Shown piece by piece: positions 9,922-45,896 of a DNA stretch of 64,000 nucleotides; the stretch's first letter is position 1, and every line of letters begins with the position of its first letter. A model generated the notes under the pieces. It was not told the origin of the DNA. It was given only the letters and a program-made list of their open reading frames with translations, and searched no databases. Source of the stretch: Leptogorgia sarmentosa (lineage: Eukaryota); the NCBI GenBank assembly GCA_964658305.1, contig OZ210885.1:2418001-2482000 (forward strand), read 5' to 3'. The position numbers and the translations under genes are program-made.

Positions 9922-12095
9922 ATTTATTTGTATATAGCGCTTGCAAAAACACGCAATTGCAAGGTACTGGAAATAGAACAATAATATAGTGTTCGCAAGA
10001 CTGAATAAGCCAATCAGACTACAAGAGAAAATGTTCTTATAGCTGTTGTACATTTCAAGGTCGCAGTCAGAGCAATTCAACATAGCTAAACAAAAATTAA
10101 ATCAAACAAATTTATTTCAACTCAATATAAACGTTTGGAAGAACCTTTCCTTTGAGGAAGCCATTTGTATTTTCCACAATTTTCCCGCTTTTGGCATATG
10201 CAGAATAAATTAGTCGACGTCATAATGTCGTATAATTTCAATATACGACATAATTACGTCATAATGTCGTATATGAGGATTTATTGCACTGCTCTTAACC
10301 AATCAAAACTCTTGAATTATTTCAAATAAATAATAAAAATAATTATTGAATGAGGTTGAGGAAGATATGAAGAATTATCTGAGCATCATTTTTTCATTAA
10401 CGATAAACTCGAACAAATCGAAATAGCGGTAAGTTTTCCGATGCCATATTTAGTGTAGCCAATATTATCTGCTAAACAATGATTGTTGCTGCCGACCGAA
10501 GGGAGGCAGCATACTATTCTTGCGGTGGTAACTCGTGCCCAGACCTCCGCGGAGTTATGTATAGTAGCCGTCGAAAATCGAGATTTGTTTCGTGACGTAG
10601 GCAATTTTATGACGTAATCAAGAGATCAGCGGGTACTGGACAGACCAACTCATGACGACTATTTTTGGAAGTTTTCGAAATTCGCAGCTGTTCGAAGTTT
10701 TGCTACGATCTTCATAAATCATAATTGTCGTAGTTGGCCGACATTGCCATCGCAATTCGTAAATAGCGGGCAAACTTAGATGTGTAACACAGTAGAACTC
10801 GTCACAACAAGATAGCCATAATTATAGGCAACATATTTGCGTGCTTTCGCATTTATAGCTTTCGTGTTTGTTTTCGCCATCTCCGACTCTTCGTCGCCTC
10901 GCGGTATTGCCATTCATTTACTAATGTACTCCTGATGCAAAAGAATAATTTACTACAATTAAACTCAGTCGGTTGCTCCTTGTTGCTTTGTAATGCGACT
11001 ATATGACTCGACAACGCTGATATGAAAAGAGTCGACGGCATCACTAAGCTTGAGTTGTTTGTTTACCAGACATACCGGGGATTTACAGAATTTTCGATAC
11101 TAAAAGAACTAAACCACATATAGGCATACAAAAGTAAATCCAACGTTGGCCTGATACTGTAAGTAAACTGGATATTTTATTACGACGCAGAAGTAGCGCG
11201 CACTTTATGATTTAACTCATTTAAGATCATTTGTTCAGCACGATGGATATATTATAATTTTAATAAGGTCAGATGTCAGAGATTTATCTGATTTGCTTTT
11301 AACACGCGCGCTGCTGCGATTGCCAGTTGCTCCTGACAATAAAATAGTGATTACTTTCTCGTATCACGTCCGGAATGTTTTCTTAGTTTTCTTTTAAAAA
11401 ATATGATTTTAGTGTTAATATAAAACTGTTTGCTTCCGGTGATTCCGATGAGTCTGCTGTTGACGCGTTTGGCAAGGGCGCTGCGTGCGAAAAACCTAAG
11501 CGAGGTCGGGCCACTGAACCACAGATTAAGACTCTTAATCTGTGACTGAGCTAAAGAATTACAGTCTTTCTTTAACTCAGTGGGTCTGGCACGGTTTTGT
11601 TTTTGTTGAAAGACCACTTACTTTCCTAAAAACTTCCGAAGACATTCTTCGATTTTTTTCTCACTCTCTCGAATTGTTTTTAGTGGTTAGGGTTAGGATG
11701 CTACGGTTAGGGTTAGATTTATGGTTTGGGACTTGTTTATTTTGTGAAAATTACGTGCCAAAGAAAGTGGGTGCTTCAGATAGTAACTCCTAGTTTAAAA
11801 CTTGTATAAACGTGTTCACACAAAGACAAATAATATGATATGCTGCTGTTTTGATTTAAATCCCAACCACCTGCTGTTTTCAATCAAATCCTATCATTTG
11901 TTACGGCAAGCACGACACCGAGAGAAAGTATTGGTTGAAAACCGAATATAACCTACTTTGTGGAGTAGTGTGATACAGGTATGTTGTTCATGCATCCATT
12001 TTCTGATTATCCCAAACACTGTCTTATCTTACTTTAGATTTTGTTCAGTAAAAGTTGAGAAATACTTTAATGTATGATTCATAATTATTCACCAG

Positions 12096-12334
12096 GGGCC
12101 GGTTGTATCAAAGGCGTTTAGCTTAAACGGTGGATAAGCAAAATTTTAAAAACACTCCTATTCATTTTGTAAATAATTGAACCCAAATTTTATCAACTAA
12201 ATGTGTAGCTCTATGCATGGTTGTTATGTTTACACAGAAAAATTTAGTTTCCTTGTAGTGAATACTTCATAATTTCGTTTGATATTTTCGACTTATCCAC
12301 CGTTTAAGCTAAACGCCTTTGATACAACCGGCCC
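12096..12334. mobile_element. Harbinger-type MITE, 239 bp, recent insertion
   Basis: Perfect 43-bp TIR gggccggttgtatcaaaggcgtttagcttaaacggtggataag, 3-bp TSD CAG. The empty site ttcaccaggaatt is visible in a sister repeat unit at ~44156. Confidence 0.88.
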
Positions 12335-12826
12335 CAGGAATTATTTATTCAAGACAGATTTAAATTTCCTATAAATTGAACATGCCATGCAGACTTGTCC
12401 TGTATGTCGTATAGAAGTGAATGATCTCTAATCTTGCGAATAGTCAATCCGGCTGACTGAATTGAATTCGAAGTAAAATCATTTATGAGAGAAACGTCAC
12501 TAGATATCCAACATAAAAGCGTGGCATTTTTCGTGGGAAACAATATTTCATCGAAAACAGGTTTGTTTTAAATAATTTACTGCTTAGTTTCAGGTCGTTT
12601 TTCAATAATACAGCAAAAATTAATTTTACTTCGTTTGTAGCGAAAGCTGCACGAATATATGCAATTATGTGTTAATTATAATTTATTAATTTATTACACA
12701 TTAACAATCGTTTATACGATATTTTGGGGGAGCTAACTTCGATGTGTGGATTCATAGATTGCGTTAAAATGCATGTAACAGGATATTTGATGCAGTCTGG
12801 GAAATGTTAAATTCTGAGGTTTGTCG

Positions 12827-12882
12827 CTTTCACTTTCTCAGAAGAAGTTCTTTCACTTTCGCCTCAAAATAACATGACGTCA
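12827..12882. promoter_or_regulatory. Putative immune enhancer module: IRF site, GAS/STAT site, IRF site, CRE
   Basis: CTTTCACTTTC at 12827 and 12850, TTCTCAGAA at 12835, TGACGTCA at 12875. Repeated at ~14298, 41602, 43140 and 44636. Motif match only. Confidence 0.5.
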
Positions 12883-15446
12883 TTGTGAGTGGTCATATGA
12901 AGTGTCACGAAGCTCTTGCGGGGGCGCGGCGCAAAACAGTTGGTAATTTAATTACAGAATAGTCTTTCACATGTTTCTTAAAAAGTTGCATGCCAACTGT
13001 CTATTTGTGCGTGCTCGAGATTTAAAAACATTCCAGTGTTTTCTCGATAAATGAGACATGCCTTTATGTGAAGAAAAATTTTAACTACGTATAATTAAGA
13101 CAAACCAAAGCACTTATTACACAATGCATTTGTAGTAAACAGCGGCAGATGGTCTGGTCGTCAGATAACTGAAGTTCAATGAATGGCAAATTATTCATTC
13201 TAGAACTAATTTTCCGCAATTTATTATTGTTGCTATACAATATTGTATTATTATTATTTTGTTGTCATACCTAAGTTTCGTAATAATATTGCATCGCCAC
13301 TTCGTTTTTGAGGCTTCGTCACTTTTATATTTCTAAATATTATTATGCAACAATGATCATGTCATTCTTCTCGCATGAAACAGGCTGTAGTGGCAATTTT
13401 TGAGACAAAACTATACTATTTGTACGTGGTATCGAGCGCTCTTGGAATTTCGTTAGCCAAAGCAGCATAATTTAAATGATAAGGTATAGAAACGCAAATT
13501 GAAATAGCGGGAAGTTTTTCGATTCCATATTTAGTTTAGCCAATATTATCTGCTGAACAATGTTTAAAACTTGTATAAACTTGTTCATACAACGACAAAT
13601 ATGATCAAATCCTATATTCCTATCATTTGTTACGGCAAGCACGACACGGAGATAAAGTATTGGTTGAAAACCGAATATAACGTATTTTGTGGAGTTGTGT
13701 GATACAGGTATGTTGTTCATACATCCATTTTCTGATTATCCAAAACACTGTCTTATCTGACTTTAGATTTTGTTCAGTAAAAGTTGAGAAATACTTTAAT
13801 GTATGATTCATATAATTATTCACAAGGAAATATTTATTCAAGACAGATTTAAATTTCGTATAAATTGAACATGCCATGCAGACTTGTTCTGTATGTCGTA
13901 TATATAAGTGAGTGATCTCTAATCTTGAGAATAGTCAATCCGGCTGACTGAATTGAAGTCGAAGTAAAATCATTTATGAGAGAAACGTCACTAGATATCC
14001 AACATAACAGCGTGGCATTTTTCGTGGGAATTAAGACTTTCAATCTTTCATTCAAAACAGGTTTGTTTTAAATAATTTACTGCTTAGTTTCAGGTCGTTT
14101 TTAAATTATACTGCTAAACTTTTACTTTGTTTGTAGCGAAAGCTGCACGAAAACATGCAAATATGTAAACATTAACAATGGTTTATACGATATTTTGGGG
14201 GAGCTGACTTCGATGTGTGGATTCATAGATTGCGTTAAAATGCATGCAACAGGATATTTGATGCAGTCTGGGAAATGTTAAATTCTGAGGTTTGTCGCTT
14301 TCACTTTCTCAGAAGAAGTTCTTTCACTTTCGCCTCAAAATAACATGACATCATTGTGAGTGGTCATATGAAGTGTCACGAAGCTCTTGCGGTGTCACGA
14401 AGTGAAGTGTCACGAAGCTCTTTCTATTTGTGCGTGCTCGAGATTTAGAAACATTCGAATGTTTAATTTTCTCGCTAAATGAAAGATCCTTCTATATTAA
14501 GAAAAAATTTAACTACGTTTAAGATAAACCAAAGCACTTATTACACAATGCTTATGTAGTAAACAGCGACAGGTGGTCTGGTCGTTAGGGTTAGGGTTTC
14601 TGACATCAATCCCCCCCACCGCCGCCCAATTAACGTTCTATCGCCGGCCCTGTGTGAATGGCATAGTTAGAGACAACCTTTGTATTTGGAATTAAACTAT
14701 GTAAATACAAAAGGAGCCCACAGTAGTGTTTTTCCGCCTTATTTGTATTTTCCAGGATTTATCTCTTTTCACGAGTCCAGGTTCTCTTATAGTCAGTTGT
14801 GGTCTTGTTGCATTGGTTCTTGCCTTCGGTTTTTGTCTTTTCACAAGCTTCTATCACTCTTCATATTTTTGAGATAAATGACGACTACTCAATGATAACC
14901 AACATTATATATATAGAACAAGATATACTGTATAAATATCACATTAGATCAAATGTCATTGCCTATAATTATTACTATATAGCAAACTTTGTCACCTAAA
15001 TTTCAATGACCTAATTTATACATTTTGCAATTTGAAAGTCATAATTCGCATTCATTTTGAGGAAAATTTAAAATCTCGAAATTTCACACGGCAGAACGTT
15101 GACACACAAACTGGTTCTATAAAACTCTTAATTTCGTACGCGTTAACTACTTTCATAGTTAAATGGTAGTTAGCTCTAGAAAACGCATTTCTTAATGGTT
15201 AACTTTCGCACGTTTTTATACAACCGGCCCCAGTTGTACACAAGGCCACCCAGCTTAACCTGGGGGAATTTAAAATTCAAAAATTTCCAGTTTGCCTATA
15301 AATTGAGACTGAAATATTCTCCAGAATTGCGAAATCTTGGTCGGGAGTGAAAAGAGCTTTCTTCTTTGGAGTTTCGAAGTATATGGGAATTTAGCTGTAC
15401 ATATATTTGTTGTTTTTTAGGTTAGAGTGACGTATCATACCACACA

Positions 15447-18320
15447 ATGGCGGGAGAAACAGTAGGATTTAACGATCCAATTCATGGCTACATGGAATTT
15501 GATCCTTTATTGGTGGAAATCATACATACTCCATCCTTTCAAAGAATGAAGAACATCAAGCAACTGGGTGGTTCATATTGGATCTTCCCTGGTGCCTCAC
15601 ACAATCGCTTCGAACACTCACTCGGCACTGCGCACCTGGCTGGAATGATGATTGAAAGATTGAGAAATGTAGGCGATGGTAGAGATTATGTAACGGATGA
15701 AGACGTCTTGTGCGTTAAGATTGCAGCACTCTGTCATGTAAGTAATATAAGTAATATAAGTAATATAAGTGTGACTTTGTCTATTGATATTTTTTTAAAA
15801 TATTTATATATAAAGAAAAACGGCATGCAAGGTTGTTTGGCTGAGGTAGCTCGTCTACTTTAATGTATGTATGTATGTAAAACTTTATTTCAATACGCTA
15901 ACTTCGACAATTATTTACAAACTGGTTTCCATGAAGGGCGTATACACACAAAGAGCTAAATGTTAATTATATAAAGAACAAAATATGTAAGAATCCCACC
16001 CTAAAATTTTAACATCATCCTCCCAAACCTCTACCCCCCAACAAGTAACCACCCACTCACCCACACGCAAAACTAACCCCCCTCCCGCCCACAATCTATA
16101 TTGCTTCCCATCATTTGGTCCTGGAGAAATTAGCTTATTATCTACTTAAATGCAATTTCGCCTTAAATGCATTGTTTTAAATGACGTAATTGACTCAGCC
16201 GCCTTGACATCTTGCGGGAGACTATTCCATAGAATTGCTCCACTGTATCCAAATGTTTTCTTTAGAAATTCCGTTTTGGGTTTTTTTTAACGAGAGATCA
16301 GTTTCGCTATTGCGTAAATCATAAATATTCTGCGATGCATTTCTCCGAGAAAAAAGATCTTTAAGGTTTGGCGCAGTGTGGTTCCCCAAGGTTTTATACA
16401 TCAATACTAGCTTGTTTTGTTCTCGTCTCCTAGCCAGGGTTTCTCAGCCCAATTTGTTTAGGACTTCAGACGATCTTACATCGTAGTCAGCTCCGGTAAT
16501 CACCCTTGCTGCTCGATTTTGAAATTTTTGCAATTTGTCTTGAAGTTCCAAGCCACAGTTATCCCACAGGGGAGAAGAATATCTTTAATGTACTTCAAAT
16601 GCCTATGAAAGGAAACTTTTTGTTGCAATATATTAATTGAAGAACTTTTAAACACATTTAAGTTCTTTATATATTTTTATTACAGGGCTTTGTTGATGAG
16701 ATACTTCAGTTTGAATCTTTTCCTTTGCCCGTTAATGACGTCACACATTGCATGATGAGTCATAATTAATTAAACTATAAATTGTTCCTGTAAATAGACG
16801 GTTTAGAAAATAAATCGTACGTTTTTGTAATTAGCGGGCATGGGAAAAGATTCAAACTGAAATATCGCAAAGCACTGTATAAAACATTATAAAAGAACGT
16901 GTACTACAATTTTAAAAGTTCTTTCATGCATTGTAACAATACTTTTCGTTTCATACGCACTTTAATATCAGATACAAGACAGTGTTAATAAGCTTTGCTT
17001 CCTACGAGGACGTTATGTCAATGTTTTTCCATTTCACAGGACTTGGGTCACGGCCCATTCTCCCATGTTTTTGATACGACCATGAAAAAGAAATTAATTG
17101 AGTACCATGAATGTCAAATTGACAAATTGTCTGATCAGGAATCTACCGATGCTGTTGAGAAGTTAGCGTACCACGAAAGGCAAAAAAAATATTTGAAAAA
17201 TTGGGAGCATGAAGATGCATCGTGTAAAATGTTTGATTATATGATAGAGGAAAACTACAAACTGAAAAAGGCTTTTGAAAAAAGAAATTTGGACAGAAGC
17301 AAGAGAGAGCTCATAAAAGAGATTATTAAAGGTACAAGCCCTGACGAGATTATTAAACGTGAAAGCCCTGAGGACGATAAATTGATAAAACAACTGAAAA
17401 TCAATGGTAAAGCGAAATGGTTTCTGTTTGAAATTGTGGCTAATAAAGTCAACGAAATCGATTGTGATAAGTTCGATTATTTTGCCAGAGACTGTCACAA
17501 TCTTGGAATGAAGAGCAATTTCGATCATCTTCGCTACATTTACAATATCCGGATTATGCCAAAACCCGACACGGAAGAGCTGCACTTATGCGTACGTGAC
17601 AAACTTAAATTTAATCTGTACGAGCTCTTCCACACCCGATGGTCATTACATCATCGCGCTTACCAACATAAGACCACCAAAGCTATCGAGGAAATGATTA
17701 CCGATGCTTTTGTTCTGCTAGAAGAAAAGTACAAGTTCTCCGAGGCCATACACGATATGAAGGAATATGCTAAGCTCACCGATGGTATCTTTTACGAAAT
17801 CTTGAACAGCAGTGATACCGATGAGAAAACCCAGAAAGCGCAAGCAATTCTCAGAAGAGTTCAGGAGAGAAATTTATATGAGTTTTATCACGAGTTTCAA
17901 CCGAATCAAAAGTTAGAAATCAACGATTTGGAAGCTGCAAAAGAAATAGCGAAGTTATCAGGAGGCCAGGTTTCTCCAGATGATTTTTTTGTGAGAACTG
18001 TAAATATCCATTTTGGCCAGAAGGAGAAAGACCCCGTGGAATCTGTCCTATTTCACAAAAAGAATCTTAAAGTTATCGATCCAATTCATAGAAGTGACGT
18101 ACTAAGCAGAATGCTCCCCGAAAAGTTTTCTGAACAGTATGTTCGTGTTTATGGAAAGAATCGCAACGACAAAAAAAAGATCATTAAGGACAGTTTCAAA
18201 AAGTGGAGCAAAGATAAAAAAATTGTTCGTGATAATCAGTGGGCAAGTGTGGCAAGTGTGGTAATGCTGACGGTGTCGGTGGCAGGGGCAGGTGTTCTTT
18301 CAAAATATTTATTCAGATGA
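15447..18320 (+). CDS. SAMHD1-like: SAMHD1-like HD-domain dNTP triphosphohydrolase A (no SAM domain); exons 15447-15737 and 17040-18320, ~523 aa
   Basis: [34 protein letters not shown] (phase-0 intron), [18 protein letters not shown] and YQHK motifs all intact. An acceptor at 15420 implies an upstream 5'UTR exon. Confidence 0.92.
15865..16577 (-). mobile_element. 5'-truncated LINE (CR1/L2-like) 3' end in the SAMHD1-like A intron
   Basis: Decayed ORF2 C-terminus ([18 protein letters not shown]...LMYKTLGN...YDLRNS...[13 protein letters not shown]) with a (TACA)n tail. Absent from the paralogous intron at ~46293. Confidence 0.8.
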
Positions 18321-28568: not shown

Positions 28569-31500
28569 TTTCCAATGCAAAATAACAACTCTGCTCTTGC
28601 CGCTTTTACTAACAAAGAAATACAGCTATATGAAATAGGTTGACAGATGGAATATTAAAATTGTAGGCAAAGTTAAATATTTCATATAGCTAAAGTAAAT
28701 TATTTACGCAAATTGCTATATGATACTCATTACCGTTTTTCATTGTATAGCAATAAGGATGCAATTGATACTCCCACATATGTGATATTTTGAAAAACTT
28801 TATTTGCATAAATGTGTGTAGTTCGATCTAAAGTAATATGGAATAGGTTCGGATCAATTGACTTTATCGCCACCCATGCGCATGGGGTGGCGTATATTCA
28901 AATGTGAAAATTTTACGATAAAGTCAATTGATCCATACTTAGGTTCTTATATTACATAAGTAATAAGTTCTCGCACAGAATATCGTCTATGAATGTCTTC
29001 AATAATTGCAACCAGATAGTCCGGCAGTGATAATAGTCTGTACTAGGTCCAAAATGGGGCGATCTCGCGTTCCCCGTCTCGACCATTTTCGCTGCATGTT
29101 GAACTTTTAAAAGCGAATATTATCATTGATGTTCAATTATATTTTCCCTGAAGGATTTTCAATCGCGACCAAAAAGCAAATTTTGGACAGCTGTCTTTAT
29201 CCCAATAATGATCGCATTGTTTCCTAAGCTAATATTTAATGACATTTAATTATTTCGAAACGTTGCTTCATAATTAGCCTACTGCCAAAGTGCATATTCT
29301 ATAATGTGTGAGGTAATTTGATACATATGCATATTCAAGTGAATTATTAATTTCTAATCAATGATGCAGTTGACTACTTATACGGGATGTCCAAAAACGA
29401 GTCTTTATAAATTTCGGCACGCTGCTGCGTGCTCGTTTCTGTAGGAAATAAAACGAAATTCGCAAAACATGAGTGAAATTTTCGAGAACAAGTGTAATTA
29501 GCCATTTCTGAATAAAGCAAAGCAAAGGACTGGGTCTAGTCTCTCGGTTTGTAGGGACAAAAATGAGCAATATGCCGAAAATGACATCTAGGAAGTTCTC
29601 CTAAAATTTTTCTAACTTCCTAGGGCCGTTTGTTCAAAAGCGGCCTAGTTTAACGCTGGGTTAACATAAAATTCAAAGAAAATTATCCAACAATTTGTTT
29701 ATGAATTTAGAAATGTTTCGTCAGAAATCTTGTGGAGATCAATGAGAGTTTTCTTTGAAGTTTCCAAGTAAACAGATTTGCAGAAATACACAAACTAAAA
29801 CACTGCTTTAAATTTTAACCCAGGATTAGCCTTTCCTAAAGTTTCTAACTTTGTGAAGTTCTTTGTGCATCCTGAAATGCAGAAATTATAATTAAGGCAT
29901 GTTTTAATATTTATTTAGCTCGTTCACTTTAATTTGTTTCCCCTCCAAGCGTCAACTAGACCCAGTCCTTTGCTCGATTGGGAAATGGCTAATTTCCTAC
30001 AATATAATTGTAGTGCCACAGAATACTAATCAGTAGTTTTTTTTCGTAGGCGCTCTATTCGTCATCATTCGTCACTCAACAATAGTGCGCTAAAGCCCGT
30101 TTTCCACTCCGCCGCCGCCGGCGAAAAAAATTGATAGCGAAACCATTTGTTTACATTCATTTGCCTCTGAGGAATTTTTTTCCAATTTTCTAGTTGTTAA
30201 AAATGTTCAACTTTTGTCTTCCCTATGACTGTGTAAAAGACACTCTCCCCTGTATTTTGAAAATTCAAATTTCAATTTTTTTTCGATTATCCTACATTAT
30301 AAGCACCCAAACAATCTATATCAACCAAAACTTCCGTACCCTGTGTCGCTTGGCGAAGTTGAAATTTGTTCACTTTTTTATACATCCTGCATAAAACAAT
30401 AAATGGTCTGATTTAAATGGACTTTTCAATACTCCACAGTCTTCTCTCTGCTCTGAGACAACGAATTTGACGTCATTTCCGCTATAAAAGTGTTGGGAGA
30501 ATCCCTTGAATTTACAAACTGAAAATATTTCTCAACCAACATGCACATGAACTTAAAATGGATCTCTCTGATTCTCTGGGCGAAAGCTGAAGAATTCAAA
30601 AACTCGAACGAAATGGAACAGTCACTCAAGCAGGGCCGACGAATCATACTGCGCCTTTTTAATTTTGGCGGGAATTTACCATGAATAATTGCATTAATAA
30701 ATTTCGATAACATGCCTTACCTTTATAATTTGAACAAGTAAGCTTAAAAATTGCTATGTATCTAACCAGAACTCCATCTAATCTAAACACATCAATAAAC
30801 GTTATTTTTTTGAAAGCTTTTTTTGCAGATGCATATTTTGTGCAGCACATTACGTGTGGAAGTTGTATTTTTCCAGTGGAAGCTACAAGACCTTTATCAA
30901 TTATGTTTTATGAATATTTAGTGATCATTGTAGGATATGAGGAATGATAAATAATTCAGCATATCCTGCGAGAACCGAATTTAATTATTGTTTTCGTTTT
31001 TAATGTTTATCGGTATAAACGCATGCATTTTAAACAAGATTAACCATTCTTTGACGAATCAAAACTCAAAACTGCTGAATTAGTTGAAATTAAAAATAAT
31101 TATTGAATGAGCTAGGTTGAGCAAGATATGAAGAATTATCGGAGCATCATTTTTTCATTAACGATAAACTCGAACAAATCGAAATAACGGAAAGTTCTAT
31201 ATTTAGTTTAGCCAATAATCTGCTGAATAATGTTTAAAACTTGTATAAACTTGTATAAACATGTTCACACAAAGACAAATATGATCTCTTGCAGTTTTGA
31301 TTTAAATCCCAACCACCTGCTGTTTTCAATCAAATCCTATCATTTGTTACGGCAAGTACGACACGGAGAGAAAATCATGTATGTTGTATAGAAGTGAGTG
31401 ATCTCTAATCTTACGAACAGTCAATCCAGCCGACTGAATTGAAGTCGAAGTAAAATCATTTATGAGAGAAACGTCGCTAGATATCCAACATAACAGCGTG

Positions 31501-33081
31501 GTATTTTTCGTGGGAATTAAGACTTTCAATATTTCATCTAAAACAGGTTTGTTTTAGCAAAATAGAAATTTTCTACTTTGTTTCAGGTCGTTTTTAAATA
31601 ATACTGCTAAACATTTAGTTCGTTTGTAGCGAAACCTGCATGAATACATGCAATTTATTATGTGTAGACATATTGTGAGCCGTCATATGAATGTCACGCA
31701 GCTCTTGCGGGGGCGCAGCACCAAAACAGTTGGTAATTTAATTACAGAATAGTCTTTCACATGTTTCTTAAAAAGTTGCATGTTCAACTGTCTATTTGTG
31801 CGTGCTCGAGAATTAAAAAACATTCCAGTGTTTTCTCGATAAATGAGACATGCCTTTATGTGAAGAAAAATTTTAACTACGTATAATTAAGATAAACCAA
31901 AGCACTTATTACACAATGCATTTGTAGTAAACAGCGGCAGATGGTCTGGTCGTCAGATAACTGAAGTTCAATGAATGGCAAATTATTCATTCTAGAACTA
32001 ATTTTCCGCAATTTATTATTGTTGCTATACAATATTGTATTATTATTATTTTGTTGTCGTACTAAGTTTCGTAATAATATTGCATCGTCATTTCGTTTTC
32101 GAGGATTCGTCAGTTTTATATTTCTAAATATTAGTATGCAACAATGATCATATCATTCCTCTCGGATGAAACAGGCTGTAGTGGCAACTTTTGAGACAAA
32201 ACTATACTATTTGTTTCATGTATGTGGTATCGAGTACTCTTGGAATTTCGTTAGCCAAAGCAGCATAATTTAAATGATATGGTACAGAAACGCAAATCGA
32301 AATAGCGGGAAGTTTTTCAATTCCATATTTAGTTTAGCCAATATTATCTGCTGAACAATGTTTAAAACTTGTATAAACTTGTTCATACAAAGACAAATAA
32401 TATTTTGATCTCATGCTGTTTTTTTATTTAAATCCCAACCACCTGCTGTTGTCAATCAAATCCTTTCATTCGCTACGGCAAGTAGGACACAGAGAGAAAA
32501 TATTGGTTGAAAACCGAATATAACGTATTTTGTGGAGTAGTGTAACACAGGTATCTCCTTTATGCAAAGTTGAGAAATACTATAATGTATCATTCATAAT
32601 TATTCACTAAGCTTTATTTATTCGAGACATGTTTAAATTTCGTATAAATTGAACAAGCCCAGACTTGTCTTTGTATGTCGTATAGAAATGAGTGATCTCT
32701 AATCTTACGAATAGTCAATCCGGCTGACTGAATTGAATTCGAAGTAAAATCATTTATTATTGCAACGTCGCTAGATATCCAACATAGCAGCGTGGCATTT
32801 TTTGTGAGATAAAAATAATATTGGTTGAAAACCGAATATAACGTATTTTGTGGAGTAGTGTAATACAGGTATCTGCTTTATGCAAAGTTGAGAAATACAA
32901 TAATGTATCATTCATAATTATTCACTAAGCGTTATTTATTCAAGACATATTTAAATTTCGTATAAATTGGACAGTAGTATAAGAAAGGCCGATCGAGCCG
33001 GATTTTTGAGGTGGCGCGAGGTGGCGCGAGGTGGCGCGAGGGGGCGCATGCGTATTGAGGCTTTGAACTCATTAGAATATC

Positions 33082-33741
33082 GTGCTGTGATTGGTTGAAC
33101 AGCGTGACGTTACGCTATAGTGTGCTGTGATTGGTTGAACAGCGTGACGTTACGCTATAGCCGCGCTGTGATTGGTTGAACAGCGTGACGTTACGCTATA
33201 GCCGCGCTGTGATTGGTTGAACAGCGTGACGTTATGCTATAGCCGCGCTGTGATTGGTTGAACAGCGTGACGTTACGCTATAGCCGCGCTGTGATTGGTT
33301 GAACAGCGTGACGTTATGCTATAGCCGCGCTGTGATTGGTTGAATAGCGTGACGTTACGCTATAGCCGCGCTGTGATTGGTTGAACAGCGTGACGTTACG
33401 CTATAGCCACGCTGTGATTGGTTGAATAGCGTGACGTTATGCTATAGCCGCGCTGTGATTGGTTGAACAGCGTGACGTTACGCTATAGCCACGCTCTGAT
33501 TGGTTGAACAGCGTGACGTTACGCTATAGCCACGCTCTGATTGGTTGAACAGCGTGACGTTACGCTATAGCCACGCTCTGATTGGCTGAACAGCGTGACG
33601 TTACGCTATAGCCGTGCTCTGATTGGTTGAACAGCGTGACGTTACGCTATAGCCGCGCTCTGGTTGGTTGAACAGCGTGACGTTACGCTATAGCCGCGCT
33701 CTGATTGGTTGAACAGCGTGACGTTATGCTATAGTCACGCT
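33082..33741 (+). repeat. 16 x 41-bp tandem array in the left TIR/subterminal region
   Basis: Unit gccgcgctgtgattggttgaacagcgtgacgttacgctata; about 3 degenerate inverted copies at 40968-41080. Confidence 0.95.
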
Positions 33742-33852
33742 TTGAATGATTGTTGGCATAAAACTATACCGTCGTCATTTAATATCATTGTTTTAGTCTT
33801 TACCCTACAAGAGGCAACACAGCTATCCCTTTGGAGAAATTTATTTTGAGAT

Positions 33853-36800
33853 ATGGCTAAACAACATCAAAAAAGTATCTTGTAAGTTATAATGCACTCT
33901 ATTTGCTTTTAATTGTAACAGTGTTAAGAGTACGGTTTTTTACTTTAGGAGAGATCAATTTATGGAAGATCTTGAGAATTAGGAGAAGAATCGACAACTG
34001 TGCGCGTTGGCAGCTGACGACATGTTTGAGTCTTCGTCGCCTGAAACCCAAGAGCAAGTTCCTGCCGAATGGTGTGACTCGAAAGAACCTGAGAAATTCG
34101 GTTGTGTGTTTGATCAATGTGGTGAAGTGTTCACACGTTCGAACGATCTGAGACGACATATCCGAAGAGCTCACACGGCTGAACGACCACACGCATGTAG
34201 TACGTGTGGTAAGGATTTCAAGACAACAGATGATTTAAGACGCCACAAAAAAAACCATGAAGAAAAAACCTTCGAGTGTCATAAATGCTACAAGAAATTT
34301 GCTCGAAAGGTATTTTTCGTTTACTCTTTGAATTAGGATTATTGATAATGTATAGACTATATTGTATATTTTTTGTTACTAGGATAACCTCGACAGGCAT
34401 TTGAAAATGCACGAGAAAAGGGGAGCCGAACGCGAATATACGTGTAATATCTGTGATAAGGTGTTTCGAGATATATTCCCGCTACAAGCTCATCAACGAA
34501 ATGTGCATAAGATTGTTGCTGGAAAACGGAAAAAGACTGATACTACAACAACCCGAGTAAACCAAGGTAAGTAAAAAGAGTCAATTATATCGTTGAAACC
34601 GATCTTCGAGACTTCGAATTTGAAACTTTTTTTCTCTGTAGGGACATCGAGCGGTGGGCAAGTTAGTGGTCGTAAACGCAAGGCAACTGATGGTACGTCA
34701 GCCCAGACAAAACGAGCTAGAGTAAACGAAGGTTGGTGTAAAAGATTGTGTGTTGACATGATAGTAAAACATATTATTGAAATATTTGCTTCCCTATAGG
34801 AAGTTTAAAGTTTAGGCAAATTTACCGTGTGTTTGAAAAACAATTATAACTTGTTTCCCAGGGACATCGCCTACCATTCCACCGAATCAGTTTCCTCAAG
34901 ATCCAATCTACCCACCACCTGATCTTCCTTCGATACTTCATCGAGAAAACTGGCGCACCATCCGGACTAGACAAAGTCGTGGCAATCGAGTTCAGGACTG
35001 GTATAATTATCGCTTGGGCTCCTTGAATATGGGTGAACTTGTGCAAGATATTGAACGTATATTCCTAGACCAAACGACCGTTTTCAAACTGAACCTTTCC
35101 TTCGGTTTTGTACTATTTAATAATGACACGGAACAGATGCAGTACCACCATTCGTCAGCCAATAACAACCGGGTATTCGAGGCACCGTTTTTGGTTCGCA
35201 GTCGTGAAAATTTGCAACAAATTCGGTCAGCGTTAGAAAATCTGGACGTGTTTTAATGGGCTCGCCAACAACGTCCCAACTCCAAGTGGGTGGTTGCGGA
35301 TATCCTTAACGCGACATTCTACGTGACAAAACTCCGCGATCACCCTATTGGACGTAGTACTCGTTTACCCAAATACGTGCTGGAGAATCCCGCTGTTGTT
35401 TCACTAGATTGTGATAGAAATACTGGATTACCGTACGAGGACAAACTGTGTTTTTTCCGTTGTTTGGCTCTACACCGTGGATGTCACTCAAAAAATTTAG
35501 AACGCGACACACAACATTATTTTGAACGGTACGTTGAAGATGTCGATGATTTTGATGGTGTGACACTTGAAGAACTTCCCGACTTGGAAAAGTTATTTGA
35601 ACTAAACATTTACGTGTATCGACTCGTGGAATGTGAGGACGAAGATACTGAGAAAACCAAGATCGTTGCACAACTTATTCAGAGATCTCACCGTACTTTT
35701 GCCAACAGCATATATCTCAACCTCTATGAAAAGCACTTTAGCTATATCAAGAATATAAATATGTACTCAAAGTCTTACTGTTGCTCTAAGTGTGAGAAGC
35801 TATGGAAAACAGCAAAAGCTTTAAATCAACACGAGAAAACCTGCGAAGCGACTGTCCGACACGTGTTCCCTGGTGGTGTCTATAAAGTCCCACAAACGAT
35901 ATTCGATTTGCTCGAAGACGAAGGTGTTGTGATCCCCGAAGAGTTGAAGTACTTTCCGTATCGGGCAACATTCGACTTTGAGTGCTATTTTCAGAAAGAA
36001 GACGACCACCCTAGAAACACAGCAAAGCTTACATGGGAAGCCGAACATGTCCCGTTGAGTGTCTCTGTTTGCTCCAACGTCCCTGGCTATGATGAACCAA
36101 AGTGTTTTGTGTCCTCTGGCAATACAAAAGAAATGATCAAACAATTTATTGACTATTTGGTACAAATCAGCCAGGAGAGTTATGCATTGCTGTTGCACCA
36201 CTTTTCCGATGTGTTTGAGCAAATCAACCGACGAATGGAAAACAATGGGGTAAGTTGAGCATTTGAATGATTAAATATTATATACTTGAATCTTGAATCT
36301 TGTTGAGACTTGTACTTATGACTATATTATGTTTAGGTGTGTACTGAAAGTAGTAGCGGTGATATAGAAGAGATGTTTGCAGACGAGGCAAATGAGGTAT
36401 ATATGATTTTCAACGGTTTAAAAATGTTCAAGTTCCACATACCATTTAATCCATTCTTATCTTTTAGGATGAAAATGAAAAGACCCACCCTCTCGAGAAA
36501 CTTCGGGACAAGTTGGAACACTATCTCATGGAACTGCCCGTCCTCGGATTCAACTCTGGCAAGTACGACATCAATGCTGCGAAAAACCCCTTCTTTGCTC
36601 ACCTAGTGAAACATGAGGAAGTCCAGTTTGTGATAAAGCGAAACAACAATCACATGTGTCTGAAGACCTCACACTTGAAGTTTCTCGACATTACAAACTA
36701 CTTGGCTCCTGGATTTTCCTACGAACAGTTCCTCAAAGCCTACGAGTGCACGCAGACCAAAGGATATTTTCCATACGAATGGGTCGACTCCCTTGATAAG

Positions 36801-39083
36801 TTAAATTTCCCCACCTTACCACCTCACGATGCGTTTCATTCAGCACTTTCCAACACCGACATCACCAACGAACATTACAGCTATTGTCAAAGCGTGTGGA
36901 ACGATCATGGTATGGAAACTTTTCGAGACTTTTTGGTGTGGTATAATAATCTTGATGTTGTTCCCTTTCTCGAAGCTATTGAAAAAATGAGCCAGTTTTG
37001 GAAAGAACGAAATATCGATATTTTTAAGGATGGTGTAAGCGTGCCAGGTTTGACGATGAAATATTTATTTTCCAATGTTCCCGATATATACTTCTCACTA
37101 TTTACTGAAAAAGACAAAGACTTGTACTATACCATGAAAGATAATAACGTTGGTGGTCCCAGTATTATATTTAACAGATACCACGAAAAAGACAAGACAA
37201 ATATACGCAACGTAGAAATGACAAGAAAGAACTTAAAACCCAAACCCTGCAAGAAAGTGGTCGGTTACGATGCGAATGCTTTATATCTTTGGGCGATCAT
37301 GCAAGATATGCCAACGGGGCAGTATACTCGTCGACTGGAAAGTGACAACTTTAAGAAGAAATGGAGTGGTAAAATGGCTGTAGAGTGGTTGGAGTGGCAA
37401 GCTTACCAACGTGGTGTTAAAATTAGACACCAAAATAACAACACAGAGAAGAGAATTGGAGCTCGTCGCCTTCCAGTGGACGGATTCTGTTCCCAAACAC
37501 AAACGGTGTTTCAATTTTACGGTACATTACTGCGTGGGACACATCGATTAAAGATACCACGTTTGTCGCAAATTGCTAATTTTCCCTTTTCTCGTATTAG
37601 GTTGTTATTGGCATGGCCATGATTGCCACTTAAACCAGGGCAAAGACACCAACACGACGCGGGACAAACCCATGAAAGACTTGCTCGAAGAGACACGGAG
37701 AAACAGTTCTTACATCCGTAAGCAAGGTTTCAATCTTGTCGAGTGTTGGGAATGTGAATGGCGTGAGAGAAAAAAGACGAACAGAGAATTACAACGATTT
37801 ATCGCTACTCGACTACGACGACCCTTAGACAAAGTGAAGACAATGACTCTACAGTCCATTCTCGATGCTGTGAGAGATGAAAAGTTATTTGGGTGCGTAG
37901 AGTGTAATATCCACGTTCCAGAACATTTACGTGAACAATTTTCTGAAATGTGTCCTATATTCAAAAACACCGAGATATCTCGAGACGATATAGGCGACTT
38001 TATGAAAGCCTACGCCGAAGATAACGACATCATGCGTCGACCTCGCAGAAGTCTCATTGGAAGTATGGTCGGTGAAAAAATTTTGTTGGCCACACCTCTC
38101 TTAAAGTGGTATTTGGAACATGGTTTAGAGGTACGTATTACGTATAGGTTAATAAGCATAGGTTTCATTACTAATGTCATTTTTGTTTTTTATAGGTAAC
38201 ACACGTCTATCAGGTGATAGAATATACACCTAAACCATGTTTCAAACCCTTTGGTGACGCTGTATCGAATGCCCGTCGTGCTGGAGATGCTGACCCGGCC
38301 AAAGCAATAATCGCAGATACGATGAAACTCGTTGGGAATTCGTCGTATGGGAAAACTATTACGAACAAAGAGCGCCATCGTCAAGTGAAATTTTGCGACG
38401 ACAACAAAGTGTCAAGCTTAATCAACTCGCCATTTTTCCGTGAATTGAACGCTATCGACGACAACACGTACGAAGTGGAAAGCAGCAAGAAAAAAATTAA
38501 ACTGGACCTGCCTCTTCAAGTTGGATTCTTTGTTTATCAATACGCCAAATTACGTATGTTACAATTTTATTATGATTTTTTAGATAAATATTTAGACAGG
38601 TCGGATTTCGAATATTGCGAAATGGATACCGACAGTGCGTATATTGCCATTAGCGTGGAACGTATAGAAGATTTGATAAAACCTGAAAATATGTGTGAGT
38701 TTGAGAACGATAAATGTAACTGGTTTCCTCGAACGGACACGGTAGAGCATGCAAAATATGACAAGAGAACGCCTGGTTTATTTAAAGTTGAGTGGGAAGG
38801 GGATGGATGTATCAGTCTTTGTAGTAAAACGTATTATTGCTTTGGGGATGGGAAAGATAAATTTAGTTGTAAAGGTGTAAATAAGACAAATAATGTAATT
38901 AACAAGGATAAATATTTAGATGTCATTTTGAGTAAACGTAGTGGGTCTGGTGTAAATAGGGGATTCAGGGTTTTAAATAATAAGATGTGCACATATGTTC
39001 AAGTTAAAAACGCTTTTAGTTATTTTTATCCAAAACGTAAAGTTTTGGAGGACGGTGTAACAACTATTCCTTTAGATATTTAA
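33853..39083 (+). pseudogene. pPolB: C2H2-zinc-finger-fused protein-primed family B DNA polymerase, 9 exons, ~1527 codons, two in-frame stops (33980, 35254)
   Basis: Exons 33853-33881, 33949-34309, 34383-34566, 34642-34731, 34862-36249, 36337-36396, 36468-37521, 37601-38130, 38196-39083. Exo motifs FDFE, GFNSGKYD, YNNLDV; pol motifs YDANALY, KLVGNSSYGK, MDTDS, KGV. Exon 1 is the least certain. Confidence 0.9.
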
Positions 39084-39353
39084 GATTTTGTAAATAGTAG
39101 TTTGTAAATATATCTTCCTATACCTAATATGTGTGTATGACTATCCAAATAACAATCTGTGTTGAGAAAAACTTATATATGCATATATCTAAATTAATTG
39201 GAGACCCTACGGTGGGTATGGGGTAGTTTTGCTTTACGGGACTCGCGGGACTTAATTTGTCCCTCCATGGGACTTTTTTCCTATTTAGTTTTCATGTTGT
39301 AGTTTGTTAAGTTTAGTTTACATCATGCCACGTTTGCGTAAAGACTGCCCGCT

Positions 39354-39782
39354 ATGTGGGAAACAGGGTTTGATGAAACAATGATTCAGCCAGTTGGAGT
39401 AAGCGTCGTACCCCCTAAACCAACTGACGACAAGCTTGTAACACAACCAGAAGACAGCGTAAATTTACCTAACAATGTTGAAGCTGATATTATGGAAAGT
39501 GTTCCTCCTACGATGAAATCTCGAGCCCGACAACTGGTTAAAAAATTGAAAGAAAATAAAGATTTGATTACATGGGACGACAAAGGCCAGATAATCTACG
39601 AGGGAAAACCTGTGGTGGGGAGTAACGTGATAGATCTTGAGAATGATGCCCTACGTCACAGAAAACAATCAGAGATTTTAAAACTGGGGCAATGCATGAA
39701 CTGGAAGAGGAACCCCAATAGTCGACCATACAAATGGTTTAGAAATAAAAAACATAGAACTAAAAGATCGTTTGTGTGTTGA
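39354..39782 (+). pseudogene. Fragment of a conserved Polinton protein of unknown function
   Basis: SVPPTMKSRARQLVKKL...ITWDDKGQIIYEGKPVVGSNVIDL resembles, from memory, a recurrent Polinton ORF; it appears truncated. Confidence 0.5.
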
Positions 39783-39788
39783 ATACAT

Positions 39789-40259
39789 TTATTGCACAAA
39801 AAACCATTTACATATAAAATCCCTTACAAGCGCATCGTTTCATTCCTTGTCGTTCGTAAACATATTAGTAATAGTTGACATGGGTATATTTCTACATCTA
39901 TGTAGTGCATAAAACCGAGACAATACTGTCCACACACATTAGACCATGCTGACTGTAAAGTTAACTTATTATAAATAAAAGTACTGCTATTATCTTCTAA
40001 AAATGTTTTAAAGTTCTCGCTGTAGTAGCTAGGTTTTTGTCCGTAAGAATCCATAAATTCCCCTTTTCGCATCAGCTGTCAGGTAAATAGCTACCCAGTG
40101 CGAGCCAGAACCATCACTAGTATCGACATTCACAACAAATCCCCTGGGCTTTTTTTCTGATATAGTATCCGGTAGACGATCCGAAGACACCACACTCGTA
40201 AACACTGACTTGGTAAACGAATCACTTTGAAGCACGTTTAGAATCTGTAGAGTGTTCAT
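39789..40259 (-). pseudogene. Adenain-like cysteine maturation protease (two frameshifts, one stop)
   Basis: VVNVDTSDGSGSHWVAIY / EFMDSYG / LQSAWSNVCGQYC give the His-Asp-Gln-Cys set across two frames; a third frame gives FYALHRCR...NDALVRDF. Confidence 0.88.
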
Positions 40260-40260
40260 T

Positions 40261-40550
40261 CTAACTGTTAAAATCGCACAGCACGTTGCGGTTAGCGTCG
40301 ATTTCAATAAGGTTTTGAAACTCTCCGAGCACCACGATATTTATAGCCCAGTTAAGAGCGGTACCAAACTGAACTTCCAGTGAGACGTTGCCGTTTTTAA
40401 TAGGTTGTAGATGATCTCTTGAACAAAGATCGGCTGTCAGATCAAACACGAACAATGTGTAACCTACTGTAGCTTTAGGGTACTCGTCGCGCGAGATGCC
40501 ATTACCTTCGTTCTGAAACAGCTTATTCGCACCAGCATACAATGTTTGAA
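40261..40550 (-). pseudogene. C-terminal remnant of the double jelly-roll major capsid protein
   Basis: GNGISRDEY..GYTLFVFDLTAD...GNVSLEVQF..ALNWAINIVVLGEFQNLIEIDANRNV is typical of a Polinton MCP C-terminus. Its stop lies 1 nt before the protease ATG. Confidence 0.82.
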
Positions 40551-43500
40551 AAACTAGATTCATATTAATCTAGTTTTTCATATCTCTGAGGATGGTTCTG
40601 AAATACAATGTTTGAACAATCGTATCTTTAACCATTCGCATCTTTCCCAAGCGCCCATGTCCGTAACACCTTCGATGTAGGCAACCACTTTCACGATAAG
40701 CTGTCGCAGCTTTTCCAAACATATAGCAATCTTGATCGGGGCAAAAGAATTCACAACTCTGCCATTGTATTCAACTCATTCCATTGTATTACGACAAACT
40801 TGTAGGTTCTCCAAGGCTTTTTTCAAACGGTCCAATCCTTCTCTAGCGTCGTCCTGAAAAATTATCGGTTTTTGACTAAAGCAAAAACACCAAACCAAGT
40901 GTAACCCAAACATTGATGTCGGAATCACTTGACAGTGTAGTTATATAGCCTTATGGCAAAAACCATGAACCAATTAGAGCGCGGCTATACTTAACGTCAC
41001 GCTGTTGGACCAATCAGAGCGCGGCTATAGCGTAACGTCACGCTGTGTTCGTCACGCTGTTCAACCAATCAGAGCACGATATTCTAATGAGTTCACGACC
41101 TCAATGCGTATGCGCCACCTCGCGCCACCTCGCGCCACCTCAAAAATCCGGCTCGATCGGCCTTTCTTATACTACTTTGGACATGCCATGCAGACTTGTC
41201 CCGTATGTCGTATAGAAGTGAGTGATCTCTAATCTTGCGAATAGTCAATCCGACTGACTGAATTCGAAGTAAAATCATTTATGAGAGAAACGTCGCTAGA
41301 TATCCAACATAACAGCGTGGCATTTTTCGTAGGGAAGACATTCAATACTTCATCCAAACCAGGTTGGTTTTAAATAATTTACTGCTTTGTTTCTGGTCGT
41401 TTTTAAATAATACTGCAAAACTTTCAGTTCATTTGTAGCGAAAGCTGCACGAAAACATGCAATTATGTGCAGACATTAAGAATCGTTTATACAATATTTT
41501 GGGGGAGCTGACTTCGATGTATGGATTCATAGATTGCGTTAAAATGCATGTAACAGGATATTTGGTGCAGTCTGGGCAATGTTGAATTCTGAGGTTTGTC
41601 GCTTTCACTTTCTCAGAAGTTCTTTCACTTTCGCCTCAAAATAACATGACGTCATTGTGAGCCGTCATATGAAGTGTCACGCAGCTCTTGCGGGGGCGCA
41701 GCACCAAAACAGTTGGTAGTGTAATTACAGAATAGTCCTTCACATGTTTCTTAAAAAAAATGCATGTTCAACTGTCTATTTGTGCGTGCTCGAGATTTAA
41801 AAACATTCCAGTGTTTTCTTGATAAATGAGACATGCCTTTATGTGAAGAAAAATTTTAACTACGTATAATTAAGATAAACCAAAGCACTTATTACACAAT
41901 ACATTTGTAGTAAACAGCGGCAGATTGTCTGGTCGTCAGATAACTGAAGTTCAATGAATGGCAAATTATTCATTCTAGAACTAATTTTCCGCAATTTATT
42001 AAATTAAATAATTGTTGCTATACAATATTGTATTATTATTATTTTGTTGTCATACTAAGTTTCGTAATAATATTGCATTGCCACTTCGTTTTTGAGGCTT
42101 CGTCACTTTTATATTTCTAAATATTATTATGCAACAATGATCATATCATTCTTCTCGCATGAAACAGGCTGTAGTGGCAACTTTTGAGACAAAACTGCAC
42201 TTTTTGTTTCATGTATGTGGTATCGAGCGCTCTTGGAATTTCGCTAGCAAAAGCAGCATAATTTAAATGATAAGGTATAGAAACGCAAATTGAAATAGGC
42301 TTTAGCGGGAAGTTTTTCGATTCCATATTTAGTTTAGCCAATATTATCTGCTGAACAATGTTTAAAACTTGTATAAACTTGTTCATACAAAGACAAATAT
42401 GATCTCCTGCTGTTTTGATTTAAATCCCAACCACCTGCTGTTGTCAATCAAATCCTATATTCCTATCATTTGTTACGGCAAGCACGACACGGAGAGAAAA
42501 TCTTGGTTGAAAACCGAATATAACGTATTTTGTGGAGATGTGTAATACAGGTATGTTGTTCATGCATCCATTCCTGATTATCCAAAACATTGTCTTGCCT
42601 GACTTTAGATTTTGTTCAGTTAAAGTTGAGAAATACTTTTATTAATGTATGATTCATAATATTCACAAGGAAATATTTATTCAAGACAGATTTAAATTTC
42701 GTATAAATTGAACATGCCATGCAGACTTGTTCTGTATATGTCGTATAGAAGTGAGTGATCTCTAATCTTGAGAATAGTGAATCCGGCTGACTGAATTGAA
42801 GTCGAAGTAAAATCATTTATGAGAGAAACGTCACTAGATATCCAACATAACAGCGTGGCATTTTTCGTGGGAATTAAGACTTTCAATCTTTCATTCAAAC
42901 AGGTTTGTTTTAAATAATTTACTGCTTAGTTTCAGGTCGTTTTTAAATTATACTGCTAAACTTTTACTTCGTTTGTAGCGAAAGCTGCACGAAAACATGC
43001 AAATATGTAAACATTAACAATGGTTTATACGATATTTTGGGGGAGCTGACTTCGATGTGTGGATTCATAGATTGCGTTAAAATGCATGTAAGAGGATATT
43101 TGGTGCAGCCTGGGAAATGTTAAATTCTGATGTTTGTCGCTTTAACTTTCTCAGAAGTTCTTTCACTTTCGCCTCAAAATAGCATGACGTCATTGTGAGT
43201 GGTCATATGAAGTGTCACGAAGCTCTTGCGGGGGCCAGAACAAAACAGTTGGAAATTTAATTACAGAATAGTCTTTCACATGTTTCTTAAAAAAGTTGCA
43301 TGTTCAACTGTCTATTTGTGCGTGCTCGAGATTTAAAACCATTCCAGTGTTTTCTCGATAAATGCGACATTCCTTTATGTTAAGAAAAATTTTAACTACG
43401 CATAATTAATTAATTAAGATGAACCAAAGTACTTATTACACAATGCATTTGTAGTAAACAGCGGCAGATGGTCTGGTTGTCAGATAACTGAAGTTCAGTG

Positions 43501-45896
43501 AATGGCAAATTATTCATTCTAGAACTAATTTTCCGCAATTTATTATTGTTGCTATATAATATTGTATTATTATTATTTTGTTGTCATACTAAGTTTCGTA
43601 ATAATATTGCATCGCCACTTCGTTTTTGAGGCTTCGTCACTTTTATATTTCTAAATATTATTATGCAACAATGATCATGTCATTCTTCTCGCATGAAACA
43701 GGCTGTAGTGGCAATTTTTGAGACAAAACTATACTATTTGTACGTGGTATCGAGCGCTCTTGGAATTTCGTTAGCCAAAGCAGCATAATTTAAATGATAA
43801 GGTATAGAAACGCAAATTGAAATAGCGGGAAGTTTTTCGATTCCATATTTAGTTTAGCCAATATTATCTGCTGAACAATGTTTAAAACTTGTATAAACTT
43901 GTTCATACAAAGACAAATATGATCTCCTGCTGTTTTAATTTAAATCCCAACCACCTGCTGTTGTCAATCAAATCCTATATTCCTATCATTTGTTACGGCA
44001 AGCACGACACGGGGATAAAGTATTGGTTGAAAACCGAATATAACGTATTTTGTGGAGTTGTGTGATACAGGTATGCTGTTCATGCATCCATTTTCTGATT
44101 ATCCAAAACACTGATTTTCTGACTTTAGATTTTGTTCAGTAAAAGTTGAGGAATATTCACCAGGAATTATTTATTCAAGACAGATTTAAATTTCGTATAA
44201 ATTGAACATGCCATGCAGACTTGTACTGTATGTCGTATAGAAGTGAATGATCTCTAATCTTGAGAATAGTCAATCCGGCTGACTGAATTGAATTCGAAGT
44301 AAAATCATTTATGAGAGAAACGTCACTAGATATCCAACATAGCAGCCTGGCATTTTTTCGTGGGAATTAAGACTTTCAATCTTTCATTAAAAACAGGTTT
44401 GTTTTAAATAATTTACTGCTTAGTTTCAGGTCGTTTTTAAATAATACTGCTAAACTTTTACTTCGTTTGTAGCGAAAGCTGCACGAAAACATGCAATTAT
44501 GTGTAGACATTAAGAATTGTTTATACGATATTTTGGGGGAGCTGACTTCGATGTGTGGATTCATAGATTGCGTTAAAATGCATGCAACAGGATATTTGGT
44601 GCAGCCTGGGAAATGTTAAATTCTGATGTTCGTCGCTTTAACTTTCTCAGAAGTTCTTTCACTTTCGCCTCAAAATAGCATGACGTCATTGTGAGTGGTC
44701 ATATGAAGTGTCACGAAGCTCTTGCGGGGGCCAGAACAAAACAGTTGGAAATTTAATTACAGAATAGTCTTTTACATGTTTCTTAAAAAAGTTGCATGTT
44801 CAACTGTCTATTTGTGCGTGCTCGAGATTTAGAAACATTCGAATGCTTAATTTTCTCGCTAAATGAAAGATCCTTCTATATTAAGAAAAAACTTAGCTAC
44901 GTTTAAGATAAACCAAAGCACTTATTACACAATGCTTATGTAGTAAACAGCGACAGGTGGTCTGGTCGTTAGGGTTAGGGTTTCTGACATCAATTCAAAA
45001 TAAAACAACTGATTTCAAAAGAAATCAGTTGGCAGATCGCCAAATTATGAATATGCACCCCCAACCCCCCCCCCCCCCCCCACCGCCGCCCAATTAACGT
45101 TCTATCGCCGGCCCTGTGTGAATGGCATAGTTAGAGACAACCTTTGTATTTGGAATTAAACTATGTAAATACAAAAAGAAGCCCACAGTAGTGTTTTCCC
45201 GCCTTATTTGTATTTTCCAGCATTTATCTCTTTTCACGAGTCCAGGTTCTCTTATAGTCAGTTGTGGTCTTGTTGCATTGGTTCTTGTCTTTTCACAAGC
45301 TTCTATCACTCTTCACATTTTTGAGATCAATGATGACTACTCAATGATAACCAACATTATATATATACATAGAACAAGATATACTGTCTAAATATCACAT
45401 TAGATCAAATGTCATTGCCTATATTACTATATATATAGCAAACTTTGTCACCTAAATTTCAATGACCTAATTTATACATTTTGCAATTTGAAAGTCATAA
45501 TTCGCATTCATTTTGAGGAAAATTTAAATCCTCGAAATTTCACACGGCGGAACGTTGACACACAAACTGGTTCTATAAAACTCTCAATTTCGTACGCGTT
45601 AACTACTTTCATAGTTAAATGTAGTTAGCTCTAGAAAACGCATTTCTTAATGGTTAACTTTCGCACGTTTTTATACAACCGGCCCCAGTTGTATACAAGG
45701 CCACCCAGCTTAACCTGGGGGAATTTAAAATTCAAAAATTTCCAGTTTGCCTATAAATGAGAAATATTCTCCAGAATTGCGAAATCTTGGTCGGGAGTGA
45801 AAAGAGCTTTCTTCTTTGGAGTTTCGAAGTATATGGGAATTTAGCTGTACATATATTTGTTGTTTTTTAGGTTACAGTGACGTATCATACCACACA

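Follow-up and report, generated by a model that had tools for sequence, protein, structure and literature searches.

Tandemly duplicated 5' ends of octocoral SAMHD1-like genes carry spliced leader exons and a predicted IRF/STAT/bZIP element

The 1.5-kb repeat in front of two SAMHD1-like genes (S1, S2) of Leptogorgia sarmentosa is a tandemly duplicated 5' end of these octocoral genes and carries spliced non-coding leader exons. Five copies of a compact cluster (module) of two IRF-E sites, one GAS and one CRE lie in the window, by which we mean the whole stretch of 64,000 nucleotides that was analysed, and we give a probability of roughly 0.55 to the reading that this putative IRF/STAT/bZIP element in intron 1 of the duplicated 5' end acts as an immune enhancer and not as a core promoter. 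Support for it comes from the splicing, from shuffled sequence, from a second IRF-E site and a GAS that stay intact, from SAMHD1 homology, and from published work on human SAMHD1 as an IRF3 target and on motif enrichment in Nematostella.

Leader exons inside the repeat unit

The window holds intron-bearing DNA of animal type (33-42% GC), in which the unit is confined to two arrays, with two units before S1 and four before S2; their modules number two and three, in agreement with the counts of a preliminary description of this DNA. Six public runs cover the region, none of them recorded as RNA, and X4-X6 are three samples from one study.

Array 1, 10414..14588, plus strand: unit A0 10414-13494 (interrupted by a MITE and an insertion of 1.3 kb) and unit A1 13495-14588
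Insertion of 1.3 kb, 10485-11792, in unit A0
MITE, 12092-12338, 247 bp with inverted ends, in unit A0; very abundant in run X1
Array 2, 31175..44972, plus strand: units B0 31175-32292 (without donor A and module), B1 32293-42292 (interrupted by a Polinton), B2 42293-43812 and B3 43813-44972
Polinton/Maverick-type element, 32973..41176, 8,204 bp, with a 6-bp target duplication and inverted ends with 41-bp arrays, inserted in unit B1 with about 425 bp between it and the module that follows
Leader exon A of S2, 43614..44070, plus strand: 3' end from a splice joint; contigs start at 43614 (one run) and about 44028 (another); equivalent S1 donor at 13707
Leader exon B, 13870..14060, plus strand: donor 14060/14061 (equivalent 44396/44397); presumed, approximate start; TATAAA at 13859
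S1 first coding exon, 15421..15737, plus strand: ATG 15447; N-terminal part of a SAMHD1-like HD domain
S1 second coding exon, 17040..18320, plus strand: hydrophobic tail at its end
S2 first coding exon, 45871..46187, plus strand: ATG 45897
S2 second coding exon, 46855..48318, plus strand: 24-bp x 11 repeat near its end, without hydrophobic tail

We treat X4-X6 as RNA because a GT..AG joint from 15737 to 17040 is present in 3/3 of these runs and missing from X1. Their contigs, which stem from this one study and come without start-site, strand or level information, gave three joints in total on 41200-46250. A GT..AG joint from 44070 (donor A) to 45871 was found in 3/3 runs, and a second, in X6 only (1/3 runs), leads from 42899+AC to 45869 with letters that match the donor copy at 14045-14060. 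The third, in X5, runs from donor A to a more divergent first coding exon: a third SAMHD1-like paralog, outside the window, is also spliced from donor A (a match to it at 45914 was seen in runs X5 and X6). Donors A and B both lie inside the unit and match the gene-proximal units best, which ties the repeat to the 5' ends of SAMHD1-like genes, as had been supposed; the coding exons begin at 15421 and 45871, next to the acceptors proposed earlier (15420, 45870). Reading upstream across the two leader joints, we found no in-frame ATG and therefore regard the leader exons as non-coding; an N-terminal protein extension was rejected on the same ground.

Within the unit, the order is donor of leader exon A, donor of leader exon B, module. 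On its left, the array meets flanking DNA ahead of exon A, and on its right about 290 bp past the module; the most likely order in a single ancestral copy is therefore exon A, exon B, module, coding exon. Measured from the donors, the gene-proximal module follows B by 238-240 bp and A by about 570-590 bp; as the gene-proximal donors splice to the first coding exon, intron 1 contains this last module. One copy further upstream is found 880-930 bp before donor A, and upstream copies overall 0.9-2.8 kb before the donors. Near the transcript 5' end, modules occupy positions 238-590 bp after and 880-1260 bp before used leader donors.

This bears on the literal model of the preliminary description, in which each module is a core promoter with a start at a GC patch and a first exon of its own, spliced from ttg/gtaatt. 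The supposedly shared patch plus donor (TTGGTAATT) is exact only at 12940 and at 31730, the latter in the unit without module; elsewhere the stretch reads TTGGTAGTG at 41713 with its GT kept, has no GT at 43249 and 44745, and is replaced in the 14298 copy, so that 3/5 copies miss the GT. None of the three joints on 41200-46250 leaves this donor, the leader donors lie upstream of the gene-proximal module, which itself is within a spliced-out intron, and contigs run continuously, at low depth, across modules B2 and B3, as fits intronic RNA or carried-over DNA. One spliced exon A contig does extend upstream to 43614, no more than about 420 bp from module B2, and some transcripts may thus begin a short way downstream of an upstream module. 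On balance we hold the core-promoter model to be very unlikely.

Units are 87-95.5% identical to one another, which dates them to roughly the time of the segmental duplication described below or before it, and the gene-proximal units A1 and B3 are mutual closest matches. The repeat does not behave like a high-copy dispersed one, an outcome that the preliminary description had named against itself, nor like a transposon or a structured RNA: within the window the unit occurs in the two arrays only, X1 depth at the module (470-730 versus 350-450 at the coding exon, depth not being copy number) is more than 100-fold below that of the MITE, and Rfam gave no match at E 0.1 in 11700-15500. Gene-proximal units are free of insertions and the distal ones carry three insertions and two deletions (the 1.3-kb insertion, the MITE and the 8.2-kb Polinton-type element; deletions taking donor A and the module). 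The pattern suggests spare copies in decay rather than a tuned amplification, and since distal units are decaying, unequal crossing-over likely accounts for array copy number more than any tuning of dosage does. The Polinton-type element is inserted directly after the TATAAA of unit B1 and has a type-B polymerase spread across several frames as well as a zinc-finger frame; frames near 40029-40569, which gave no Pfam match, we take to be protease-like and capsid-like. Many further short inverted-repeat elements are found across the window.

A cluster of IRF-E, GAS and CRE sites

Module A0, 12827..12882: IRF-E 12827-12837 (minus strand), GAS 12835-12843, IRF-E 12850-12860 (minus strand), CRE 12875-12882; all intact; 880 bp upstream of leader donor A
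Module A1, 14298..14353: CRE changed; within S1 intron 1, 238 bp after donor B
Module B1, 41602..41654: all sites intact; about 2.5 kb upstream of S2 donor A
Module B2, 43140..43192: first IRF-E changed; 930 bp upstream of donor A
Module B3, 44636..44688: first IRF-E changed; within the intron removed by the joint 44070-45871

All five modules were found where they had been described, and the changes noted there were seen as well: a mutated CRE at 14298, a mutated first IRF-E site (C>A) at 43140 and 44636, and a deletion of about 180 bp, at 31671/31672, that removes the module from the sixth unit. The described span of 56 bp holds for array 1, that of array 2 being 53 bp. On the minus strand, GAAAGTGAAAG occurs at 12827/12850, 14298/14321, 41602/41622, 43160 and 44656, and 8/8 matches in the window fall within the five modules. 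A GAS-type TTCTCAGAA overlaps the first IRF-E site and is intact in 5/5 copies, as is the second IRF-E site; both IRF-E sites are intact in 3/5. The loose GAS form TTCN2-4GAA is common, with 30 sites in the window. The CRE TGACGTCA is present in 4/5 copies and reads TGACATCA in the 14298 copy. That these motifs had been called IRF-E, GAS and CRE agrees, for the first two, with the definitions given in PMC7819612 (ISRE with two GAAA cores, AANNGAAA; GAS as TTCN2-4GAA): the IRF-E sites follow AANNGAAA with two or more GAAA cores, and the GAS follows TTCN2-4GAA.

Elsewhere, kB-like sites and a CRE lie between the GPCR and the arrays (8498-8688, 30468-30506), one kB-like site overlapping a GAS-like site at 8674-8688, and a weaker kB-like site is found at the start of four units (13509, 32307, 42307, 43827). 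The kB-like or CRE-like sites at 8498, 8674 and 30468 had been considered as the true promoter and were dropped once the donors were mapped inside the repeat unit.

Taken as a single event, the cluster is beyond chance in shuffled sequence. Two strict IRF-E sites within 70 bp were seen in 0/4000 dinucleotide shuffles of the 1,486-bp unit, two loose ones (GAAANNGAAA) in 3/4000, and one loose IRF-E with GAS and CRE in 0/4000; with 300 shuffles of the 32 kb of non-redundant window the corresponding numbers were 0, 8 and 0. These counts concern a motif set chosen after seeing the sequence, with five copies of a single origin; its motif definitions were afterwards checked against PMC7819612.

Among the five copies, variable columns make up 3/53 in the module versus 158/944 in the other ungapped columns (p=0.033, unfiltered), and versus 119/877 once misaligned ends and the rearranged GC patch are removed (p=0.14, a weak test); in the filtered alignment 138/877 sliding windows are as conserved as the module. 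Inside it, motifs (2/33 variable bases) are kept no better than spacers (1/20). Module conservation is thus not significantly above the rest of the unit among the five copies, which counts against the immune-enhancer reading, as does the finding that the two intronic copies (14298, 44636) have each lost one of their sites.

A rival reading takes the cluster for chance or relic intron-1 sequence, passively copied with the leader exons, its second IRF-like 11-mer made by a short local duplication. Besides the missing excess of conservation, lesions in 3/5 copies, the complete deletion in the sixth unit, the single origin and the picking of motifs after the fact agree with this, and so does the record from Nematostella: a search by name brought up no gene called SAMHD1 in the differential tables for cGAMP in PMC8713801, where viperin is present, nor in the rows covered of the poly(I:C) supplement of PMC8476169, differential sheets included, where RSAD2 and IRF are. 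Annotation gaps could account for this absence; as they stand, the two data sets give no support, by name search, to SAMHD1 induction in cnidarians. Against passive copying speak the shuffles, in which a loose IRF-E, a GAS and a CRE never came together inside 70 bp (0/4000 for the unit, 0/300 for 32 kb), and the location of the cluster at the 5' end of a gene whose human homolog is a known IRF target. We regard passive copying as possible though rather doubtful, and prefer the immune-enhancer reading.

Looking for orthologous loci in metagenome contigs, we obtained two from 76 pattern matches, one a 1,776-base contig with 65 bases before the ATG, the other a weak match. At least 123 stretches in viral contigs have a doubled IRF motif; all 80 listed have spans in steps of three, unlike the spans of 31 and 34 found here, and are likely simple or coding repeats.

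The sites might also be functional for something other than induction, be it Blimp1/PRDM1-type repression or constitutive, IRF-driven expression in a cell type. The BLIMP1 consensus AAGTGAAAGTGAA overlaps IRF-E, an overlap described as likely ancient in PMC2938208, the GTGAAAG core is common to both, and spliced transcripts are present in 3/3 runs of unknown treatment. BLIMP1, however, is a repressor and leaves GAS and CRE unexplained; both sites are without the 3' T of the GAAAGT core extension, and an overlapping GAS with a CRE nearby would better fit signal-driven activation. We consider this option improbable, and keep to an inducible enhancer.

Two SAMHD1-like genes in a segmental duplication

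S1 and S2 are homologs of SAMHD1 and predicted dNTP triphosphohydrolases. Comparison with human SAMHD1 structures gave E 2e-64 with exon 2 and 2e-31 with exon 1, and HD metal and catalytic motifs are present in both, placed with what we take to be the human residue numbers. In exon 1, HD was the sole Pfam match, with no N-terminal SAM domain found in S1 or S2; both also lack the C-terminal TP motif. For S1 (15447-18320), the best named relative of exon 2 comes from the octocoral Paramuricea clavata (64% and 62%), with Xenia and Dendronephthya next (about 40-46%), which points to a host that is most likely an octocoral. The S1 tail (18237-18320) is hydrophobic (19 residues of mean hydropathy 2.0), ends in a basic tip and resembles a tail anchor; it is shared by 11/120 fetched homologs, ten of which are among the 14 closest, and the sister group to the tailed homologs has a TP motif and a basic tail instead. 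Judged by these predicted proteins, a membrane-anchored octocoral SAMHD1 subfamily is likely. In S2, the repeat at 47979-48251 (24-bp x 11) is coding and rich in Lys, Glu and Asp.

Self-comparison of the window revealed a tandem segmental duplication with parts at about 4041-25130 and 25146-54536, each holding a rhodopsin-type GPCR, a SAMHD1-like gene (S1 or S2) and AdipoR-like exons. Non-coding flanks of the two parts are 96.6-97.5% identical in 4/5 stretches tested and 90.0% in the remaining one. At the junction (25130-25146) there are about 15 bases that are absent from both flanks, without N, and the 105 bases that follow are identical to 4041-4145. We tentatively favour real paralogy over false duplication by assembly, because S1-type and S2-type pieces recur in three other samples and because of these novel bases without N.

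Exon 2 of S1 (17040-18320) and S2 (46855-48318) are only about 84% identical versus about 97% for the flanks, with divergence increasing towards the 3' end. Over 124 codons of the later part of exon 2 we obtained a dS of 0.59, a dN of 0.28 and a dN/dS of about 0.5, when neighbour genes between the two parts have a dS of 0.013 (GPCR) and 0.046 (AdipoR). Because this is far above the neighbour genes, the comparison points to older or converted 3' halves, and suggests conversion from another paralog or old haplotypes. Positive selection on the SAMHD1 paralogs was not shown (dN/dS 0.2-0.6 by simple counts).

Around these genes, the AdipoR-like copies (22958-24769 and 52460-54204) differ by seven silent changes and one replacement, and copy 1 is without the upstream exon found at 55520-55846, a pattern that fits a recent duplication joining two diverged alleles, or an alternative first exon. 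Outside the duplication, 1752-3209 (minus strand) holds an MFS-type transporter frame (Pfam), and 59571-63843 (plus strand) what we take to be exons of a gene with immunoglobulin-like repeats.

Interpretation and known systems

Under the enhancer reading, the module would at first have been part of intron 1, some 240 bp beyond donor B, before tandem duplication placed spare copies upstream of working leader exons. Cnidarian IRFs may bind the two GAAA-NN-GAAA sites, STAT the overlapping TTCN3GAA and an ATF/Jun dimer the CRE, and factor binding may raise the predicted dNTP-destroying enzyme after nucleic-acid sensing without interferon, of which we know no description in the coral host. A wider scenario can be envisaged, tentative and to our minds rather unlikely in its entirety, in which octocorals put an expanded, fast-diverging and partly membrane-tailed SAMHD1 subfamily under an interferon-free IRF/STAT antiviral regulon independently of vertebrates, tandem duplication of leader exon and intron-1 enhancer varying the response between paralogs or haplotypes.

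If the element works as an enhancer, SAMHD1 would be under IRF control some 600 million years from vertebrates; if it does not, what is left is a duplicated 5' end of an ordinary sort, in a gene cluster of immune-like character. On whether cnidarian IRFs or STAT directly drive antiviral genes, published evidence is divided: according to PMC8476169, Nematostella genes induced by poly(I:C) show enrichment for STAT, IRF, NF-kB and ETS motifs in a region spanning promoter, first exon and first intron, whereas cGAMP induction was not reduced when single Nematostella IRFs or STAT were knocked down (PMC8713801), which counts against the enhancer reading. With four sites, five copies that differ by single-site lesions and mapped splicing, this compact natural element is a ready substrate for testing.

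With the enrichment published in PMC8476169, interferon-type motifs in cnidarians are not new. IRF2 is induced in Nematostella and Stylophora (PMC13319465, whose main text is without motif analysis) and an IRF in Cassiopea (PMC11444771, no motifs in the part available), and the cGLR preprint does not mention SAMHD1. Our literature searches, which covered few subscription journals, brought up no publication dealing with a regulatory element or an expansion of SAMHD1 in cnidarians.

By sequence and position, the cluster resembles a vertebrate ISRE/GAS element, with function predicted. Like the IRF-E/ISRE and GAS elements covered in PMC7819612, it combines two GAAA-NN-GAAA sites fitting AANNGAAA, TTCN3GAA and a further factor site; unlike these, the coral sites are in intron 1 and in upstream duplicates, and binding is only predicted. 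Human SAMHD1 is, according to PMC4944147, a direct IRF3 target with a site at -31 to +19 and STAT1-independent induction. The coral genes share with it the gene family, an IRF-type element near the 5' end and an induction that could be interferon-independent, a likeness of element type and position; the human site, in contrast, is promoter-proximal and STAT1-independent, a point against the enhancer reading, and the coral proteins are without SAM domain and C-terminal TP motif. The Nematostella enrichment (PMC8476169) concerns many-gene statistics in a hexacoral, with no single element dissected in the parts that bear on this, as opposed to the octocoral cluster described here. Still, it involves the same motif classes in a cnidarian, and the region searched includes the first intron.
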